NCBI GenBank assembly: GCA_031459655.1
Contig: JAVKID010000001.1
Coordinates: 893-64,892, forward strand
From: Candidatus Fervidifonticultor octavus
GTDB taxonomy: Bacteria; Sysuimicrobiota; Sysuimicrobiia; Sysuimicrobiales; Humicultoraceae
DNA: 64,000 bases
Direction: 5' to 3'
Of this stretch, positions 25,434 through 36,374 are shown piece by piece (the stretch's first letter is position 1; each line of letters begins with the position of its first letter). Both the position numbers and the translations under genes were made by a program. The notes beneath the pieces are model-generated. The model saw only the letters and a list, made by a program, of their open reading frames with translations, was not told the origin of the DNA and did no database searches.

Positions 25434-27992
25434 TCACGTCAGAATGCTCCGCAGCCACTCCGCGAGCGCTCCCCACCCGAACCCGATGAGCCCCGCGATG
25501 AGCGCGACGATCAGCAGGACGCCCCACCGCCGGTTGAGCAGGAGCACCCAGAGCACAAAGGGCAGGGCGAGCAGCCCTTCCCACAGGAGCAGGGTTCCGG
25601 TGGGGGTCATGATGCCGATTGACCCCGCCACAACCGTCAGGACGGCCCAACCGAAGAAGAACACCAGCGCCAGGGTGACCAGTTTGCGGACCGCGCTGTC
25701 GCGGCCCCAGATCGCGATGGCCGGCCACTGGATGAAACCGAGCGCGATTCCCAACCCCCGCCCCGTGTAGCCGAACAGCGGGCGGAGGGGCTTCGGGGCG
25801 CCCACGTCCCCCAATCGCCGGAGCATGTTCCGGAAGACCCACCCCGCCCGCAGGGCCAGCGGCACCTTGGCCTCGGCCGGCAGGTCGGCCACCGTCTCCG
25901 CGCCGATCTTGTACTCGCGCTCGAGAAAGGTCCGGTAGTCGGGATGGGTGGCAGGCTGCCAGAACCCGGAGAGTTCCTCCCGGCAGACAGCTTCCTGGGC
26001 CGCCCGGATGTGACGCTCCACGACCTGGGGTGCCTGGCCTTCCAGCAGGACCCGCATGATGACCTCGGAGGCGTCCAGCCGTCCCCAGAGGATGTCGTTG
26101 GCGCGCCAGCGCCCGCTGAGGAACCCGCCGAAGTGCCCCAGCACGTCGCCGGAGAGTTTGTCCTCGGGTGGCTTGCGAACGTACAGGGCGGCCTGGGGGC
26201 TGATGCGGATGAAGCGCACTTCCTGACGCTCGCCGAGGTCGGCCAGGAGGTCCAGCGGGAGAATGAACATGTCCCTGATCTCGTAGCGGTCGAAGATCGC
26301 CGGAAAGGGATGCGGGGGGAACCTGGACGACGCCACGCCCTGGACTCGCAGCCGGGCGATGGCGTCCTCGATCTCCTCGCAGGCGGCCAGCGTGTCCCTC
26401 CGCAGGCGCTCCAGGCCGTCTTCCAGCGCGGCACCGACGAGCACCAGCGTTCGCTGAACCGCCACGCTGAGCGCATCCCCACCCTGGCCTCGCAGTCCGC
26501 GCATCGCCTGAGCGGTGTTCTCCTCTTGCTCGAACACGCGCCGGCTGAGGGAGCGGATCCCCTCCAGCCGCGCCCACAGGGCGGCGCGGGCCGCCTTGAA
26601 CAGGTCGCGCTGCTCCGGGATGAGGGTGGCGGAAAACTCGTCGAGCGTGGCAATCAAATAGTACGCCCGCCGCAGCCGGAAGCCGTCGTCGAAGGTGTGG
26701 AGGAACTGCGCATCGCCGGCCTCGCGCGCGCAGGCCCGCACGCCGTCCTCCACAAACTGCCGTTGGTCGGCCGCCAGGGGCGCGGTGCGGACGATCCGCT
26801 CGGTCACCGCGGAGACGACCGCGTCCTTCTTGAGGGCCTGGTAGGCGTAGTAGAGGACCTGCTGTTCCAGGAAGGCCCGGAACTGCTCGGTGGTGCCTTC
26901 ATTGACGACCCGCTGGAACCTCTCGGTGATGACCCGCTCGATCTTGAACATCTGCCCGGCGAAGGCCCGCACCCGGGCGTTGTGGGCCTCGAGACGTTCC
27001 AGGTCTCCGGCGATGCTCTGGTACATGGGGATGCCCGAGGCGGCCTTGAACAGGACCTCCAGGACCTCGGGTTCCGGACCGGGCTCGTCCTGCGATGCGT
27101 AGCGTTCGGGGTCGGGCTCGACGCTGAACAGCCAGCGCCGCACCGGCCGGTCGCTCTGGCGCGCGAAGATCGTCTGGAGGGTCTCCGTAAACGGCTTGTT
27201 GTGGAGGATGCCGCCGTCGGAGAAATAGGCCGCCTCGGGTTCGCCGGGACGGAAGAGCGCGGCGTTGTCGGCACGTTTGCGGATCAGGTCGGGCTCGAAG
27301 GCCGCGGGAAAGGCGCTGGTGGCCCTGGCGACCTCGACCAGCGCCGCGTTGCTCGCCGGGCCGAAGTCGCTGTGGTCGTACCCCAGGCTGGGGTCGGCCG
27401 GGTTGTAGCCCTTCGTGCGGAAGCGCAACTGGAACAGCTTGCGGTAGTCCCGGGTCTGCACGGTCTGTCCCAGGCTGTCGGTGAACTCCCTGACCATGCC
27501 CCGCAGCCGCGTGCCCGAGACGAACAGGTCGAGCACCTCGATCAGGCGTCGGCCGCTCGCGGTGCGGTCCATGGTGCGGAACGCCTCGGCGAGCTGCTCC
27601 TCGAAGAAGTCCGACCGCAGCAGCGACCGCGGCACCGGTTCGGTGGGCGGCCGGAGGAGTTTGTCGAAGTCGGCCCGGTCGATCCAGAACTGGCTGATCG
27701 CGGTGAGGTCGGCGCCGGTGGCCAGGGCTTTCGCGAGCAGGACGCCGTTGATGCCGCCGGCGGACGTGCCGGAGATGACGTCAACCGTGGCGGTCACGTT
27801 GGCCAGCTTCAGGGCGCCGGTGTAGGCGTTGAACTCCTCGCCCCGGCTGGCCCGGAGCAGGTGCCAGAACTCCCGGACGATGCCGAACATGTAGACCGCC
27901 AGCGAGACCCCGCCGTACAACACCAGTCCGATACGGAGTTCGCGGAGGGGATCGGGGACGGGCAGCGCGGATGTCGCCGGAGGAGCAGGCAT
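25434..27992 (-). CDS. Large patatin-like phospholipase family protein (852 aa) with a C-terminal multi-TM anchor (DUF3376-type architecture)
   Basis: Oxyanion YGGVSLAVY, nucleophile GTSAGGING (GxSxG) and catalytic Asp in FSDGGIL. Long helical middle region, then 3-4 TM helices at the C-terminus. Confidence 0.8.
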   Translation of the reverse strand: MPAPPATSALPVPDPLRELRIGLVLYGGVSLAVYMFGIVREFWHLLRASRGEEFNAYTGALKLANVTATVDVISGTSAGGINGVLLAKALATGADLTAISQFWIDRADFDKLLRPPTEPVPRSLLRSDFFEEQLAEAFRTMDRTASGRRLIEVLDLFVSGTRLRGMVREFTDSLGQTVQTRDYRKLFQLRFRTKGYNPADPSLGYDHSDFGPASNAALVEVARATSAFPAAFEPDLIRKRADNAALFRPGEPEAAYFSDGGILHNKPFTETLQTIFARQSDRPVRRWLFSVEPDPERYASQDEPGPEPEVLEVLFKAASGIPMYQSIAGDLERLEAHNARVRAFAGQMFKIERVITERFQRVVNEGTTEQFRAFLEQQVLYYAYQALKKDAVVSAVTERIVRTAPLAADQRQFVEDGVRACAREAGDAQFLHTFDDGFRLRRAYYLIATLDEFSATLIPEQRDLFKAARAALWARLEGIRSLSRRVFEQEENTAQAMRGLRGQGGDALSVAVQRTLVLVGAALEDGLERLRRDTLAACEEIEDAIARLRVQGVASSRFPPHPFPAIFDRYEIRDMFILPLDLLADLGERQEVRFIRISPQAALYVRKPPEDKLSGDVLGHFGGFLSGRWRANDILWGRLDASEVIMRVLLEGQAPQVVERHIRAAQEAVCREELSGFWQPATHPDYRTFLEREYKIGAETVADLPAEAKVPLALRAGWVFRNMLRRLGDVGAPKPLRPLFGYTGRGLGIALGFIQWPAIAIWGRDSAVRKLVTLALVFFFGWAVLTVVAGSIGIMTPTGTLLLWEGLLALPFVLWVLLLNRRWGVLLIVALIAGLIGFGWGALAEWLRSILT

Positions 27993-28067: not shown

Positions 28068-28586
28068 TTACGGCGCGAGGGGGGCCACCGCGAACACGAC
28101 GTGGAACGGCTTGCAGTAGATGACCACCGCGCGGTAGTCGGCGAGGTTGGTTTCCGCCGGCAGCGTGTAGTTCTGGCTGCCGACGTTACCCTTGAGCCTG
28201 GCGACCTCGATGTACCCCGTCATCACGTCGGCGCGCGTCCTGGGCGCGGCGTGCCTCGTGAGGATCACGTACAGGTCGGGACCATTCGTCACCCTGAACG
28301 GGTCTAGGCGGAGCACGACCTCCCCGCCGACCCGGTAGACCGTCGCGGTCCCTTCGCCCTTGTGGAAGTCGTCGGCGCCGGCGAAGGTGCCGCGGGCGAG
28401 GACCGTGCCCTGGGCGGTGCCTGGGGGCATCGGATCCGCGGATGCGGCCGGCACACCGCCCGGGAACGACTCGTCCACCACGCGGTTGATGAACAGCGGC
28501 GAGCCCAGATACCAGGCGATCGGCACGCCGACGATGACGAGGACGGCGACCATCCCCCAGGCCCACTTCGGGATCCGTCGTCGCAT
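28068..28586 (-). CDS. DM13 domain-containing protein (N-terminal TM anchor)
   Basis: Start at MRRRIPKWAWGMVAVLVIVGV (ATG 28586), then a DM13-like beta-rich domain (ARGTFAGADDFHKGEGTATVYRVGGEVVLRL...). Confidence 0.6.
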   Translation of the reverse strand: MRRRIPKWAWGMVAVLVIVGVPIAWYLGSPLFINRVVDESFPGGVPAASADPMPPGTAQGTVLARGTFAGADDFHKGEGTATVYRVGGEVVLRLDPFRVTNGPDLYVILTRHAAPRTRADVMTGYIEVARLKGNVGSQNYTLPAETNLADYRAVVIYCKPFHVVFAVAPLAP

Positions 28587-28737
28587 GGGCTGACTTCCTC
28601 CTCCCTGTGGCAGGCTCGTGGTCCGCCACAAGCGATTGCCACCCACCTGGACGTGCTGCCCGTGCTCTTTCACGATCGGTACCTGAGAGCGCCTAAACTA
28701 CGATGAAGGTTCGGTCAAGATTACGTAACATCTTCGC

Positions 28738-29730
<993 letters not shown>

Positions 29731-30063
29731 TGTCGCATTCCTCATCTTGAGCTACGTGCCAGGCGTCCCCGATCTGTTTACGCCTCCGACGCTTGCTCCT
29801 CTCCTTCTGGCATTCGGTGTGTGGACCGGCTACAAGATCGTCCAGTTCCATGGCGGATTTGTCGACGCCCTCATCGCCGGTGGGGCGGTGGGCGTGGTGT
29901 GCGGCGTTCTCATCATCATCGGGAACGGGTTCATTCGGGGGGCCGGGTTCGCAGCCGTCTGGCCTCTCGCCGTCTGGGCCTTTGGCATGAACCTGTTCGG
30001 AGGCGTCGGTGGAGGAGGGTACGCGTTGAGCAAGTAGCAGGTCAAATCGACGCCACTGCCGAC

Positions 30064-30104
30064 AGGGACGCGGCGCTGACCGCGTCCCTGTTGATATTCT
30101 TCCG
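30064..30104 (+). terminator. Intrinsic terminator: perfect 11-bp stem CAGGGACGCGG / CCGCGTCCCTG with a 6-nt loop, then TTGATATTCTTCC
   Basis: Read directly from the sequence, 27 nt after the stop of the small membrane protein gene. The T-rich tail is on the plus strand. Confidence 0.5.
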
Positions 30105-30161
30105 CTCGCTCCCGCCGAGCAGGGCCAGGATGCCAAGACGCCAGCCGACAGGCGGACGGCC

Positions 30162-31583
30162 CTAGCGGTTCAGCAGGATCGGCAGGGTCAGCGCGATCAC
30201 CACCACCAGCGCCCACAGCGCTGGCGCCGAGGTGAGCAGGTGTTCCCTGCGGCGGACCACGCGGGCTTCCTCGACCCGCGACCGCGGGATCCACCACGGG
30301 TTGAAGCGGGCCTCCAGCAGGTGGAAGACGACGCCCATCGCGGCACCGTAGGCGAAGTGCGCCACCAGGCTGCCGAAAAGTGCTGCGGCGGCCTCGGCCG
30401 TCCACTGGGGCGCCGCGCCCAGCAGGACCGGCATGAGCGTGAGCGGGCCGAGCACCCACCACAGGAAGCCGTAGGTGACGCCCCAGCCCAGCGCCGAGCC
30501 GACGTCGAGGCTCTGCCGGCGGAAGAACAGCCCGTAGCTCGCGCCGATGGCGCAGGCCACGACAACCTGTACGGTGACGCCGGCCAGCGCCGACCGCGAC
30601 CCGAGCAGGCCGGCCGCCGCCGGGACGAACCCGGTGCGCACGGCCACCACGGTGAAGAGCGCTCCGCCGGCCAGCCCGGCCAGCACGCCACGGCCGATGG
30701 CGCGCAGACCCTCGGTGCCGATGCCTTCCTGGTCCCCGCCGCCGCGGATGTCGGAGAACAGCAGGCGCGCCACGCCGTCCAGCCACTGGACGCCCAGGCC
30801 GACCGCGGCCCCGAAGAGCAGGTAGCCTGGCAGCACGGAAAACCCTGCGCGGGCGTCCTCGACCGACCATGCCAGCCCGGCCCCCCGCGCCAGCGGCACG
30901 ATGGTCAGGGGCCAGAGGGCCCACCAGAAGAAGCCAAAGACCATGCCGCGAACCAAGGCCGGTCCGGTGCCGTCCGGGGGCCGCGGGTAGAGCAGGGCGA
31001 AGCTGACCCCGCCCAACAGGCCGATCACCGGGGTCGACGGGCCGTCCGCCCGCGGTCCGAGCAGCGCGAGAAGCGGCCAGGCACCGGCGAGGCCCGCGAC
31101 GGCGCCCCGGACCAGCACGCCGACCAGCGTCCAGCCCCGTAGCGCGCCTCCAGGCAGGGGGTCGCGCCGGATCGCCGCCAGGGCCAGGCCCGTGGCGGCG
31201 CCGTAGCCGAGATGCGCCAGCAGGCCCGCAAAGGCCTCCTGCGCCGAGTGCACGTCCCAGGCGATGACTCCGAGCTGCAACAGCGGCAGCAGGGTCAGCG
31301 GGCCGAGGAACCACCAGAGCGCGCCGTAGGTGAGGCCCCAGAACAGCGTCTCGCCGGCTCCCGGGCGCTGGTGCCAGACGAGCACGCCGAAGCCAGCCCC
31401 GAGGATCGCCGCGACAACCAGGTGGACGACCACGCCGGCGCCGGCAGCGCCCGGGCGCACCAGCGACGCGGTGGAGGGGAGCGCGGCGATCTGCGCCAGG
31501 GCCGCTGCGGAGATCAGGCCGCCGACCAGGCCGGCCAGGGTGCCGGGAAGAACGCCACGGGCGAACCAGTCGCGGGTCCTCAC
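30162..31583 (-). CDS. Polytopic membrane protein built from three tandem ~110-aa modules (signature YGxxWWxxGPLTLxPxLLG ... HxxYGAxxG), paralogous to the NDH-2 N-terminal module
   Basis: GTG start at 31583 overlapping the NDH-2 TGA (GTGA). Three internally homologous repeats are visible by eye. The 170 R/P-rich codons upstream in the listed ORF are rejected because they overlap the NDH-2 coding region. Confidence 0.65.
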   Translation of the reverse strand: MRTRDWFARGVLPGTLAGLVGGLISAAALAQIAALPSTASLVRPGAAGAGVVVHLVVAAILGAGFGVLVWHQRPGAGETLFWGLTYGALWWFLGPLTLLPLLQLGVIAWDVHSAQEAFAGLLAHLGYGAATGLALAAIRRDPLPGGALRGWTLVGVLVRGAVAGLAGAWPLLALLGPRADGPSTPVIGLLGGVSFALLYPRPPDGTGPALVRGMVFGFFWWALWPLTIVPLARGAGLAWSVEDARAGFSVLPGYLLFGAAVGLGVQWLDGVARLLFSDIRGGGDQEGIGTEGLRAIGRGVLAGLAGGALFTVVAVRTGFVPAAAGLLGSRSALAGVTVQVVVACAIGASYGLFFRRQSLDVGSALGWGVTYGFLWWVLGPLTLMPVLLGAAPQWTAEAAAALFGSLVAHFAYGAAMGVVFHLLEARFNPWWIPRSRVEEARVVRRREHLLTSAPALWALVVVIALTLPILLNR

Positions 31584-33397
31584 GCGCCGGCTCCCGGGGG
31601 CGACGGCATCGTCGCCGGGGTGCGCGAACTCGCCCCCGTCACCTGCGGCAGCGTCGGCGTGGGGACGCCGCCGGTCAGCACGATGTCCCGCGGGAAGAAG
31701 AGGTCGAGCGTCCAGTCGAGCACGACGCGGACCTTCTTCTCGAGGCCGGGCAGTTTGCTCAGGTAGACGGTCCGCCACAGGAACCAGGCGAGCAGGCCGG
31801 AGAACTTCCATCCGCGGATCTCGGCCACGGCCGTGCGATGGCCCAGGGCGACCAGGGTGCCGATCGTGCGGAAGCGAAATGGTCTGGGCGGCTGGCCGCG
31901 CAGTGCGGCCGCGATGTTCTCGGCCGCGGCCTGCCCCTCGCGCAGCGCGTGCTGCGCCGTGGGCGGGCAGGACGTCCCCGGGCGGTTGGGGTCCGGGATC
32001 TGGGCGCAGTCGCCGACGGCCCACACGGCTTCCAGGCCCCTGACCCGCAGGGCCTGGTCGGCGACTGCGGCGCCGGCGCGGCTGCGCTCGCATGGCAGAG
32101 TCGCCAGCAGCGGATGAGGCTGGTTCCCGGCGGTCCAGACCAACGTCCGTGTCGGGATCGCACGGCCGTCGCCCAGCAGGACCGCGTCGGATGTGGCCCC
32201 GCCCACGCGGGTGTTCAGCAGGAACTCGATCCCGCGCGCCTGGAGCTTCCGCAGGGCGTAGTCCGCCAGCGCCCGGCTGATCTCAGGCAGGATGCGCCCG
32301 CCGGAGTGGATCAGGAGGAAGCGCGGTTCGTGGGGCTGGATGCCGGGATAGTACCGGAGCACGCTCCCCACCAGGTCGAACAGTTCGGCGATCATCTCGG
32401 TGCCGGCGAACCCGCCCCCGGCGACCACGAAGGTCAACTGGCGCACGCGCTCCTGGGGATCGGTCTCCGCGTCCGCGCGCTCCAACAGCGCGATGACGTG
32501 GTTGCGCAGCCGCGTGGCGTCGTCCAGGGTCTTCAGCGTGAAGGCGTGGGTTTCGAGGCCGGGGAGGCCGTAGAAGTTGGGAACCGCACCCAGGGCGAGG
32601 ATCAGGTGGTCGTAGGGGAGCACCTCGGTCGGGGCGGTCGGGTCGGTCCGGATGCTGACGGTTCTGGCGGCGCCGTCGACGGCCTCCACCTCGGCCCGCC
32701 GGAAGCGCGTGTGCTGCAGCGCCGCGCGCACCGGCGCGCTGATGTGCTGGGCCTCCAGGCCGCTGCTTGCCACCTCGGCCAGCATGGGGGTGAAGAGTAG
32801 GTAGTTGCTCTGACTGACCAGGGTGATCTCCAGCCGCGGATCGCGCGCGAAGAGGTGCTCCAGGCGCTGCGCGGCACTGACGCCTCCGAATCCGCCTCCC
32901 AGGATGACCACCCGCCAGGACGGCGCCTCCGGGAGCGGCAGACGGCCGAGGGCCGCGGTCTGGGGGTGCCGGCGCAAATAGAGCGCGACGAGTCCATAGA
33001 AGCTACCGCCGAGGAGCGCGCCGTAGAGCAGGTGCCCGACCAGGTTGGGCAACGCGGCCGCCGCGGCCGCAGCCGTCCAGGTTGGCGCGCCGCCCCGGAG
33101 GAGCGGGATCAGGGTCAGGGGGCCGGCGATCCACCAGAGGAGCGCGTAGAGGACACCGCCGGTGATCGTCGACGCGTAGCCGAGCGGCTGGTAGCGGAAG
33201 ATGACCCCGAACCCGGCGCCGATCAGCACCGCGGAGCCCAGGTGGACGGCGAGCCCGGCCCCCAACGACGCGAGCCCGATCAGGCCGGCAACACTAGCCA
33301 GCAGGCCCTGGGCCTGCATGGCCCAGGCCGAGGCCAGGCCCCCGACCAGTCCCCCGATCCCGCCGGCGACGAGGTCACGGCGTAGCGCGTGCGACAC
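31580..33397 (-). CDS. Type II NADH dehydrogenase (NDH-2)-like FAD/NAD(P) oxidoreductase with an extra N-terminal 4-TM membrane module
   Basis: Residues ~1-140 form a membrane module (GAGFGVIFRYQPLGYASTITGGVLYALLWWIAGPLTLIPLLRGG...). Then the canonical NDH-2 region: GGGFGG FAD site, GGGFAG second dinucleotide site, GDCA. Confidence 0.75.
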   Translation of the reverse strand: MSHALRRDLVAGGIGGLVGGLASAWAMQAQGLLASVAGLIGLASLGAGLAVHLGSAVLIGAGFGVIFRYQPLGYASTITGGVLYALLWWIAGPLTLIPLLRGGAPTWTAAAAAAALPNLVGHLLYGALLGGSFYGLVALYLRRHPQTAALGRLPLPEAPSWRVVILGGGFGGVSAAQRLEHLFARDPRLEITLVSQSNYLLFTPMLAEVASSGLEAQHISAPVRAALQHTRFRRAEVEAVDGAARTVSIRTDPTAPTEVLPYDHLILALGAVPNFYGLPGLETHAFTLKTLDDATRLRNHVIALLERADAETDPQERVRQLTFVVAGGGFAGTEMIAELFDLVGSVLRYYPGIQPHEPRFLLIHSGGRILPEISRALADYALRKLQARGIEFLLNTRVGGATSDAVLLGDGRAIPTRTLVWTAGNQPHPLLATLPCERSRAGAAVADQALRVRGLEAVWAVGDCAQIPDPNRPGTSCPPTAQHALREGQAAAENIAAALRGQPPRPFRFRTIGTLVALGHRTAVAEIRGWKFSGLLAWFLWRTVYLSKLPGLEKKVRVVLDWTLDLFFPRDIVLTGGVPTPTLPQVTGASSRTPATMPSPPGAGA

Positions 33398-33436: not shown

Positions 33437-33904
33437 CTACTTGAGGTTCTCGGCGATGATGTTCAGCAGGGCGGCCACGCCCTTGGCCGCCATGCGGGCC
33501 TCGGTCAGGTTCTTGCTCCTCACGCCCGCCACCGCCAGCGCGTCCGCCTGCTCCGCGAGCAGCATGAAGTCGCCGCCGCCCGGCGCCCCCTTCAGGTCCG
33601 CGAGGATCCCGTTCCCCATGCCCTGGCACACGTGGCCCCAGGCCTGATTGAAGTTCTTCCCCCTCGTGCCCTCGAGGCAGTTGAGCGCGTGGCCCAGGTG
33701 CTGCTGCACGTAGCCGAGCGCATTGCCCTCGCCGGCGAACCCGGCATGGGTGACCGCCGTCTTCAGTTGTCCCTTGACGTCGGCCGCCTGCCCGGCCCGC
33801 GCGGGCGGCGCGTACTGGTACTGGCTATGGTAATCGCCGTAGGTCAGCCCTGCGAGCCCGGACACGAGCAGTCCGACCACCAGAGACGCCACCAGGAATC
33901 TCAC
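33437..33904 (-). CDS. Secreted hypothetical protein (signal peptide); GTG start at 33904 proposed
   Basis: Proposed N-terminus MRFLVASLVVGLLVSGLAGLTYG, then a mostly helical Gly/Ala-rich mature region. No family recognised. Confidence 0.4.
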   Translation of the reverse strand: MRFLVASLVVGLLVSGLAGLTYGDYHSQYQYAPPARAGQAADVKGQLKTAVTHAGFAGEGNALGYVQQHLGHALNCLEGTRGKNFNQAWGHVCQGMGNGILADLKGAPGGGDFMLLAEQADALAVAGVRSKNLTEARMAAKGVAALLNIIAENLK

Positions 33905-33970
33905 GGTTTGCACCCCCCTACGCTTTCGCCCACCCCGTCTCGCGGGGCAAGGTGTTGATCCCGGCATGTC

Positions 33971-34605: not shown

Positions 34606-34635
34606 TCCTGACGCCTTGACCCCTTTCTGAAGGGC
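34606..34635 (+). promoter_or_regulatory. Near-consensus sigma70 promoter TTGACC -18- TATAAT driving the sulfite-oxidase-like operon
   Basis: Read directly from the sequence, in a 70% GC context. The predicted TSS is about 34642. An AGGGGG Shine-Dalgarno lies 5-10 nt before the GTG at 34681. Confidence 0.5.
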
Positions 34636-34680
34636 TCCGTATAATTTGTGCACATTCCGGCGCGATACAGGGGGTGGGTC

Positions 34681-35928
34681 GTGCGACAGGATGATCTGCG
34701 CGACGAAGCCATCTACGAGCGGACCCGGCAGGACGAGTTCGTCTGGCGGCGCGCGCGGGAACTGGGGATCTCGCGGCGCCGCTTCCTCGCCCTCCTGGCT
34801 GCCGGCGGAGCATCGGCCGCTCTGGGCGGCGTGCGGCCGGCGGGCCCCGCGTCCCTCCATGCCGCCCCGGCCGCGCCGCTGGTCGTCAAACCGGTGCCGC
34901 CGGACCTGTTCTACAACTTCGGCAGCAACCACGAGATGCGCTGGGAGCACATGACCGGCCGCGGCTACCTGGTGCCCAACGAGCTGTTCTTCATCCGCAA
35001 CCACACCCGCACCCCGCGCATCGACCCGTCTACCTGGCGCCTGAGGGTCGAGGGCTCCGGCGTCCGGCGTCCCCTGGAGTTGACCTACGACGACATCCTC
35101 TCGCTGCCGGACGTCTCGGTGCGCCGCTACGTGGAGTGCGCCGGCAACGGCCGCAGTTTCTTCGAACTGCAGTATGGCAGGCGCGCCCAGGGGACCCAGT
35201 GGCGGCTCGGCGCGGTGGGCGTGGCCGAGTGGACCGGGGTGCCCTTGCGCGAGATCCTGGACCGGGCGGGGCTGAAGACGACGGCCGTGGACGTGCTGCC
35301 GGAGGGCCTCGACGACCTGAAGGTGCGCAGGCCGATGTCCGTGGCCAAGGCGCTGGAGCCCGACACATTGCTGGTCTACGCGATGAACGGCCATCCCCTG
35401 CCCCCCGACCACGGGTTCCCCGCGCGGATCCTCGTGCCGGGGTGGATCGGTATCGCCAACATCAAGTGGGTAGGCCGGCTCGAGGTTTCGGAGACCCCGC
35501 TCTACACCCCGTGGAACACCGAGAGCTATGTCATGATCGGGCCCGACTACAAGAAGCCCGACGGCCCGGCACTGGGGCCGGTCCTGTCGGCGCAGAACGT
35601 CAAGAGCGCCTTCGAACTCGCCTGGCCGGCCGAGGTGCGGGCCGGCCGACGCGTCGTCCGCGGTCGGTCCTGGGGCCCCTACGCCATCACGAAGGTCGAG
35701 TACAGTCTCGACCGCGGCATTACGTGGCAGACCGCCCGCATCCGCGATGCGGCCGCGCCGCGGGCCTGGGTGCGCTGGGAGTTCGAGTGGGACGCGCGGC
35801 CGGGCGACTACAGCCTGCGCGTGCGGGCCACCGACGCCCAGGGGAACACCCAGCCGGCCGGAGTCCCGTGGAACGAGCAGGGGTACCTCTACAATGCGGT
35901 GGTCGGCCACCCGGTGACCGTAACGTGA
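34681..35928 (+). CDS. Sulfite oxidase-family molybdopterin oxidoreductase (SorA/YedY-like), Tat-exported
   Basis: Twin-arginine motif SRRRFLALLAAGGASAAL. Moco-binding Cys region VECAGNGRS, and a dimerisation-like C-terminal domain. The start was moved to GTG 34681 because the -10 element sits only 7 nt before the first listed start codon. Confidence 0.7.
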   Translation: MRQDDLRDEAIYERTRQDEFVWRRARELGISRRRFLALLAAGGASAALGGVRPAGPASLHAAPAAPLVVKPVPPDLFYNFGSNHEMRWEHMTGRGYLVPNELFFIRNHTRTPRIDPSTWRLRVEGSGVRRPLELTYDDILSLPDVSVRRYVECAGNGRSFFELQYGRRAQGTQWRLGAVGVAEWTGVPLREILDRAGLKTTAVDVLPEGLDDLKVRRPMSVAKALEPDTLLVYAMNGHPLPPDHGFPARILVPGWIGIANIKWVGRLEVSETPLYTPWNTESYVMIGPDYKKPDGPALGPVLSAQNVKSAFELAWPAEVRAGRRVVRGRSWGPYAITKVEYSLDRGITWQTARIRDAAAPRAWVRWEFEWDARPGDYSLRVRATDAQGNTQPAGVPWNEQGYLYNAVVGHPVTVT

Positions 35929-35942
35929 GGCCGGGCAGCCGG

Positions 35943-36374
35943 ATGTGGCGGGCGCCGCGTCTCGGCGCGGGGCCCGCGCGCATGGCGGTCGGTGCCGTGA
36001 CCGCGGGGATCCTGCTGGCAGTGTCGGTCGCGCTGCCCGCGGGGCAGAGGGCCCGGGGTCGGTCGGTGCTGGCCGCGCCGGCACCGTCACCGCGGCCGGT
36101 GCTGATGAAGGCCCGAGAGTTCGTCTTCGATCCCAAGGAGGTGACGGTGCGCGCCGGCGAGGTGACCTTCGAGGTGAAGAACGAGGGCTCGATCGAACAC
36201 AACTTCCTCATCGAGGATGTCAACCGCCGCACGCTGGCCCAGATCCCCATCATCGAGCCGGGCAAGACCGAGGACGTGAAGGTCACGATCCGGCCGGGGA
36301 CCTACCCCATTGTTTGCTCGCTGCCCGGCCACAAGGAAGCCGGCATGACCGGGACGCTGCGGGTCCAGCCGTGA
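35943..36374 (+). CDS. Cupredoxin (plastocyanin/azurin-like blue copper protein) with a signal-anchor
   Basis: Type-1 Cu ligands H (IEHNF), C-x2-H (CSLPGH) and M (GMTG). N-terminal hydrophobic segment. Confidence 0.7.
   Translation: MWRAPRLGAGPARMAVGAVTAGILLAVSVALPAGQRARGRSVLAAPAPSPRPVLMKAREFVFDPKEVTVRAGEVTFEVKNEGSIEHNFLIEDVNRRTLAQIPIIEPGKTEDVKVTIRPGTYPIVCSLPGHKEAGMTGTLRVQP

Follow-up and report, generated by a model that had tools for sequence, protein, structure and literature searches.

NADH:quinone oxidoreductases of type II (NDH-2) are the textbook monotopic, non-pumping entry to the respiratory chain and a drug target in mycobacteria and parasites. Here we describe a gene pair in a 64,000-nucleotide stretch of Candidatus Fervidifonticultor octavus (GCA_031459655.1, contig JAVKID010000001.1, positions 893 to 64,892; hereafter the window), in which an NDH-2 with an N-terminal membrane module (p1) is followed by a membrane protein built from three further copies of that module (p2). 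We conclude that this polytopic NDH-2 form with its dedicated repeat-module partner is real, widespread and apparently undescribed, and that a lineage of NDH-2 seems to exist as an integral-membrane complex and not as the usual surface-attached enzyme.

The canonical enzymes of Caldalkalibacillus thermarum (4NWZ), Staphylococcus aureus (5NA1) and yeast (Ndi1) share with p1 two GxGxxG domains, a catalytic Glu, a quinone motif of the form AQxAx(Q/R) and an NDH2_C domain. Whereas these enzymes are monotopic, p1 carries an N-terminal module of four transmembrane (TM) helices and has an obligately adjacent partner of 13 TM helices; its C-terminal domain is also hyper-conserved, and a His stands in for the acidic residue that ends beta-strand 2. 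An initial annotation of this DNA had proposed a departure from the monotopic NDH-2 paradigm (PMC5299459, PMC13433803), and p1, with its four-helix TM module at residues 1-146, is indeed not monotopic.

The need for a dedicated partner was established only lately, for one lineage, the Bacillales, in which Ndh (YjlD) depends on YjlC, a helical membrane plug-in (HMP) protein encoded next to it (PMC13433803). The small YjlC builds cytoplasmic tubes that are filled with lipid, and the C-terminal domain of Bacillus Ndh has been repurposed from binding lipid to binding YjlC (PMC13433803). Both systems join a type II dehydrogenase to a dedicated, neighbour-encoded partner, but the likeness is one of role and not of ancestry: p2 is polytopic, belongs to an unrelated family and shows no HMP homology, a copy of its module is also fused to p1, and the pair spans several Terrabacteria-type phyla whereas the YjlC system is found in Bacillales only. 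The pair would be a second dedicated-partner solution, unrelated to the Bacillales one and taxonomically much broader.

We found no earlier report of a fused or transmembrane NDH-2 with a module partner in the searchable literature, outside which a brief mention is possible, and a preprint of 2025 that treats the evolution of NDH-2 mentions neither transmembrane nor fused forms. Enzymes with domains fused at either end were left out of the reference data set of 1762 NDH-2s (PMC5299459), which is probably why the fused clade has gone unnoticed.

An NDH-2 gene coupled to a membrane-protein gene

The pair occupies the minus strand at 30162-33397 of the window and comprises the following features, for which open reading frames (ORFs), AlphaFold 2 (AF2) models, a module hidden Markov model (HMM) and sequence comparisons gave the evidence named.

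31580..33397, minus strand: p1, NDH-2 with N-terminal membrane module, 605 amino acids (aa), GTG start, TGA stop (coding 31583-33397; stop 31580-31582); ORF, Pfam, PDB match, Foldseek
32960..33397, minus strand: N-module of p1 (aa 1-146), four predicted TM helices, N-terminus predicted cytoplasmic; AF2 helices 3-29, 48-67, 74-100 and 116-143, homology to p2 modules
31673..32917, minus strand: NDH-2 catalytic core and C-terminal domain of p1 (aa 161-575); GxGxxG motifs, E334, AQHALR, conservation
31580..31583, minus strand: GTGA start/stop overlap, translational coupling; the sequence reads ...GCG TGA, with GTG at 31583-31581
30162..31583, minus strand: p2, triple-module membrane protein, 473 aa, GTG start (coding 30165-31583; stop 30162-30164); ORF, AF2
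31164..31583, minus strand: p2 module A (aa 1-140); pairwise alignment, AF2, module HMM
30744..31148, minus strand: p2 module B (aa 146-280), the most degenerate copy; alignment, conservation
30294..30734, minus strand: p2 module C (aa 284-430), the most conserved copy, with Y350, W367, Y371, H409 and E424; conservation
30165..30293, minus strand: p2 C-terminal region with NPWW motif, basic amphipathic helix and final TM helix; AF2 helices 436-449 and 453-470

The two genes make up a conserved unit with translational coupling between p1 and p2. The last two bases of the p2 GTG and the A that follows them are the p1 TGA; a Shine-Dalgarno-like GGGAG lies 7 nt 5' of the p2 start, and GGGGGA lies 4 nt 5' of that of p1. 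The initial annotation had claimed co-translation from the GTGA overlap, and both the sequence and its relatives support this: when start-stop geometry was scored in 76 related loci, the p1 stop and p2 start overlapped in 53, by a 4-nt NTGA in 35 (possible in 47) and by 8-29 nt in 18 more.

Judged by its motifs, Pfam domains and predicted fold, p1 has an intact NDH-2 as its catalytic part. Pyr_redox_2 matched residues 162-488 (E 5.8e-44), with a further match to Pyr_redox, and NDH2_C matched residues 513-571 at 43.1 bits against a cut-off of 27.7. Across a 30-sequence alignment both dinucleotide motifs (GGGFGG at 167-172 and GGGFAG at 327-332) were invariant, as were E334, which aligns with the equivalent Glu of 4nwz and corresponds to the catalytic E172 of S. 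aureus, and the A, Q, H, A and R of the quinone motif AQHALR (481-486). This is the AQxAxR variant which, like APxAxQ, is an accepted alternative to AQxAxQ in the analysis of 1762 NDH-2s (PMC5299459). The best PDB sequence match of p1 was the C. thermarum enzyme (4nwz, E 1.6e-47), followed by mycobacterial NDH-2, Bacillus subtilis YjlD, S. aureus NDH-2 and yeast Ndi1; the core also counts FSP1 among its structural relatives, and Foldseek placed the AF2 core on NDH-2 structures with TM-scores of 0.81-0.84.

Two parts of p1 set it apart from these enzymes. At the end of beta-strand 2 in the nucleotide Rossmann fold, the acidic residue is replaced (NVEAAPTVLP in 4nwz versus IHS(R/G)(D/G)RILPE), and the fused NDH-2s conserve His364 at 97% or more and Arg368 at 90% or more (p1 residues 364-369, window 32290-32308), a pattern that we take to resemble NADPH-binding sites and that suggests NADPH or dual specificity. 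The other is the C-terminal domain (513-575; 31673-31861), the most conserved part of the protein, with a mean top-residue frequency of 0.82 against 0.71-0.72 in the catalytic domains and 28 of its 63 columns conserved at 95% or more. In the AF2 monomer this same stretch has a predicted local distance difference test score (pLDDT) of only ~30-39, with helices 534-546 and 552-567 modelled at low confidence, as if its conformation depended on a partner.

Repeat modules and their distribution

The initial annotation had recognised one module in p1 and three in p2, and alignment upholds that count: modules N, A, B and C are 30-44% identical to each other (BLASTP E 8e-13 to 2.5e-27), and Smith-Waterman scores of 159-270 stand far above those of 300 composition-preserving shuffles (means 41-51, maxima 73-84; z = 12.8-26.6). 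The proposed length of ~110 aa was too short, as the module spans ~135-145 aa once its first helix is included. Modules N, A and C carry its proposed signature, GAGFGxxF...YGxxWWxxGPLTLxPLLxG...HxxYGAxxG, which has degenerated in B. Twenty columns are invariant over all four modules, including WW, P-L-T, P, W and G-A..G, which give a WW..GPLT..P..W core; beyond the modules, P429, W430, P454, A455 and W457 of p2 are conserved at 97% or more. A functional site, perhaps a channel or a place for quinone to bind, had also been suggested from conserved WW-GPLTL-P and His/Tyr positions, and of these the WW, P-L-T and P are invariant while the His is not universal. His409 of module C and His122 of the N-module, both in the outer half of TM4, are highly conserved, but the TM4 His is Tyr in module B and variable in module A, and the TM2 His of module C is Gln in the p2 of the window.

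AF2 predicted p2 as an all-helical protein of ~13 TM helices, arranged as three four-helix modules followed by the C-terminal helices (pLDDT 83.3, predicted template modelling score (pTM) 0.85). Lys and Arg counts follow the positive-inside pattern, with 18.9 on the predicted cytoplasmic side of p2 against 3.6 outside and 5.8 against 1.2 in the N-module of p1, which assigns to the cytoplasm the N-terminus, the loops that join TM2 to TM3 and the linkers between modules. The p1 flavoprotein domain would also be cytoplasmic, because it follows four helices that start from a cytoplasmic N-terminus; the conserved p2 loop motifs and the NDH-2 domain would therefore lie on one side of the membrane. 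None of the modules was found to hold a conserved His pair or Cys motif able to bind heme or metal, nor do the TM helices hold a conserved buried chain of Lys, Glu, Asp or His, their conserved residues being mainly Gly, Trp, Tyr, Pro and Thr.

The AT skew reaches +0.29 at 30001-32000, far above the remaining window, likely because the very hydrophobic p2, encoded on the minus strand, has T-rich second codon positions.

By sequence similarity, the module is a remote relative of DUF1440 (PF07274; COG3477, 'YagU'). Both proteins stay below the Pfam cut-off of 34.7 bits, p2 with 19.7 bits (E 8.9e-4) and the N-terminus of p1 with 12.2 bits (E 0.19), yet DUF1440 was matched by 26 of 30 p2 homologues at E<=1e-3 (best 2.7e-12), so we place the kinship at the superfamily level; DUF6789 was matched by three of the 30. 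The similarity covers TM2-TM4 of the module, and the Joint Genome Institute (JGI) names homologues 'YagU'. The DUF1440 profile of 135 positions corresponds to about one module, which is here tripled or fused to a flavoprotein; we did not see a stand-alone single-domain form, every instance found being a triple repeat or an NDH-2 fusion. A profile of the four window modules had 1179 matches at E<=1e-3 (581 at E<=1e-10) among 1.84 billion representative proteins, and the best 150 of these were essentially all p2-type (three stretches), p1-type (one N-terminal stretch followed by the NDH-2 core) or evident fragments, so the module is essentially confined to the NDH-2 pair. No NCBIfam family covers p2, no PDB sequence matched its profile and PDB offers no analogue of the module, and no papers were found that link NDH-2 with DUF1440, COG3477 or YagU. 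The initial annotation had raised the possibility of an undescribed family of accessory subunits, and in the literature searched this holds for the association with NDH-2 but not for the module itself, which has these remote relatives; the kinship does not refute the idea, because DUF1440 is without known molecular function. All that the literature gives for DUF1440 is that E. coli yagU is acid-induced and has an acid-resistance phenotype. The pair thus gives the DUF1440/YagU superfamily a concrete, testable functional context.

A genome scan detected p2 relatives in at least 372 species genomes, and a protein collection held more than 689 homologues, almost all of 440-500 aa and many labelled 'YagU involved in acid resistance' by JGI. 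Neighbourhoods were counted in the best 80 of the scanned loci, which came from Actinomycetota (36), Chloroflexota (22), Armatimonadota (6), Bipolaricaulota (3), Deinococcota (2), single metagenome-assembled genomes (MAGs) of Bacillota and Calditrichota, and others; carriers include Streptomyces, Nocardia, Actinomadura, SAR202 and other Dehalococcoidia, Armatimonadota and Trueperaceae. Co-occurrence of module and ndh is close to complete, as a fused NDH-2 lies directly upstream of the p2 relative on the same strand at 78 of the 80 loci and contig ends cut the other two. At every complete locus examined, the module HMM counted a single module in the NDH-2 ORF against three in the partner, and the architecture recurs in isolate genomes (Streptomyces sp. 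NBC_01092, Kutzneria buriramensis DSM 45791 and Nocardia callitridis), so the fusion is not the assembly artefact that the initial annotation had allowed for. The 1+3 module architecture and the adjacency of the two genes are conserved over several phyla.

The nearest genome was that of Ca. Fervidifonticultor sextus (Armatimonadota), with 94% identity in p2, and a twin of p1 from an independent assembly is 100% identical. The best 120 listed p1 homologues are mostly ~560-640 aa long (one of 675) and each covers at least 90% of the query. When the ORFs of the loci were clustered and out-of-frame shadow ORFs set aside, p1 and p2 alone were common to all, and the next real family, DM13, occurred at 18 loci.

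At several Streptomyces and Nonomuraea loci (L043, L051-L055, L070, L075, L076), the N-module matches the HMM only over ~80 residues (~36-124) and the NDH-2 fusions are shorter (544-566 aa); the module may be reduced there.

Possible roles of the membrane part

On balance we lean, with modest confidence, towards p1 and p2 being an integral-membrane type II NAD(P)H:quinone oxidoreductase in which a four-module complex anchors the flavoprotein and shapes its quinone site. The N-terminal four-helix DUF1440-like module tethers p1 to the membrane, with the flavoprotein domain in the cytoplasm. The two proteins would assemble, probably 1:1, and bring together four homologous modules and 17 TM helices. 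In canonical enzymes the C-terminal domain is a lipid-binding one; that of p1 would instead dock on conserved elements at the cytoplasmic face of p2, with module C, its loops and the NPWW helix foremost among them. That this domain is the most conserved part of p1 suggests docking on protein, and candidate docking elements are the module C loop FRRQSxD, the GWG.(S/T)YGF.W start of TM3, E424 and the NPWW helix. Docked in this way, the membrane part would anchor the enzyme and form or gate the site of quinone binding and reduction, with access for the quinone built by protein rather than bare lipid. These phyla probably use menaquinone. Heme ligands and buried charges are not conserved, which speaks against both electron transfer across the membrane and ion pumping. 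Among culturable hosts, those with genetic tools such as Streptomyces would allow direct testing, and a possible NADPH-linked quinone reductase and a link to DM13 proteins are leads for bioenergetics.

Several observations weigh against this reading. No quinone-site residues were identifiable in the module, and its invariant columns, in which Gly, Trp, Pro, Leu and Ala predominate and Arg142 is the sole charged residue, fit a purely structural role. The AF2 monomer of p1 sets the N-module against the core without confidence (pTM 0.64), and YagU acid resistance, the sole DUF1440 phenotype, is uninformative for the NDH-2 pair. Genes near the pair add two further points: ECF (extracytoplasmic function) sigma, zinc-finger anti-sigma and FMN_red genes in Actinomycetota hint at stress response over core respiration, and DM13 genes beside a quarter of the loci hint at an outer-face process beyond simple anchoring.

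The first of these hints leads to a possible though unlikely alternative, in which the pair is an inducible, stress-response NADPH:quinone reductase that keeps quinones or lipophilic acceptors reduced, like FSP1 or WrbA, and the modules position the enzyme. It is compatible with the architecture proposed above, which it shares, and differs from it in physiological role. ECF sigma genes stand beside the pair at 12 loci, zf-HC2 anti-sigma genes at 10 and FMN_red genes at 9, the checked examples coming from Actinomycetota, FSP1 is a structural relative of the core, and the Glu that ends beta-strand 2 in the C. thermarum enzyme gives way to His364, followed by Arg368. However, the regulator genes are lineage-specific, the nucleotide preference is read from sequence only, and in a Trueperaceae MAG (L036:2297-5980) the pair directly follows a COX1-COX3 fusion and the assembly factor SURF1, a respiratory-chain context with cytochrome oxidase genes.

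Other explanations give the membrane part an active role. It seems doubtful to us that the arm of four modules and 17 helices goes beyond anchoring and couples the oxidation of NAD(P)H in the cytoplasm to an event across the membrane, be it the translocation of ions or the delivery of reducing power to extracytoplasmic DM13 proteins; if true, the pair would stand for a hitherto unrecognised, widespread class of polytopic NDH-2 complexes, and the DUF1440/YagU superfamily would gain its first molecular function. The DM13 gene of the window is as follows.

28068..28673, minus strand: membrane-anchored DM13-domain protein, recurrent neighbour and possible third component; Pfam DM13 E 1.4e-18

This protein may be a third component that acts on the membrane's outer face. 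DM13 genes directly adjoin the pair at 20 of the 80 loci (11 Actinomycetota, 7 Chloroflexota and 2 Armatimonadota); in Dehalococcoidia they share the strand of the pair and lie upstream, and in Streptomyces they are convergent and lie downstream. A redox relay, in which NAD(P)H electrons pass via the four modules to an extracytoplasmic acceptor such as this protein, would account for that recurrence across three phyla, and the N-terminal anchor of DM13 proteins would put their domain outside the cell, on the side towards which the conserved His409 and His122 lie. We nevertheless hold the relay to be decidedly improbable, as the modules hold no conserved His pair or Cys motif for heme or metal, the TM2 and TM4 histidines vary as described above, three quarters of the loci have no nearby DM13 gene, and the 'electron transfer' label of DM13 is itself a prediction. 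We also rejected a heme-binding four-helix bundle, since His is not conserved over modules or species.

Coupling to ion movement fares worse. An energy-conserving NDH-2 with an ion-translocating arm coupled to quinone reduction was considered: the 17-helix part is large, conserved and repeat-built, loosely like the repeated antiporter-type subunits of complex I, and an additional coupling site would be of use to lineages that carry the pair. The TM helices have no conserved buried chain of Lys, Glu, Asp or His, and we rejected an ion pump on the absence of such charges; an arm of this kind is very unlikely. Finally, although TM segments can give spurious similarity and the window and most of its relatives are metagenome-assembled, the likelihood that the modules reflect chance hydrophobic resemblance or that the fusion is an assembly or annotation artefact is negligible, being refuted by shuffle z-scores of 13-27, adjacency at 78 of 80 loci, the isolate genomes and the identical p1 of an independent assembly.

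Surrounding genes in the window

On the downstream side of the pair, the following element lies between p2 and a convergent gene.

30060..30093, no strand assigned: 14-bp GC-rich hairpin 3' of p2, between convergent genes, likely the end of the transcription unit; from a consensus scan only, with a site count in the region not above shuffled expectation

The convergent gene (29672-30037, plus strand) is a 121-aa Gly-rich small membrane ORF without a Pfam match. On the upstream side, a protein of 176 aa that has an N-terminal anchor and matches nothing in Pfam (33437-33967, minus strand) ends 39 nt 5' of p1 on the same strand; its homologues occur near the pair at only 7 of the 80 loci, and it may be co-transcribed in this lineage.

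Farther from the pair, we detected a protein of 852 aa (25434-27992, minus strand) that has patatin-like phospholipase and DUF3376 domains and whose C-terminal tail is hydrophobic. A gene for a sulfite-oxidase-type molybdoenzyme (Oxidored_molyb and Mo-co_dimer; 34616-35928, plus strand) has a near-consensus sigma-70-type promoter (11 of 12 matches) directly 5' of it, and an overlapping frame downstream of this gene (~36000-36374) ends in what appears by eye to be a cupredoxin-like Cys..His..Met motif.

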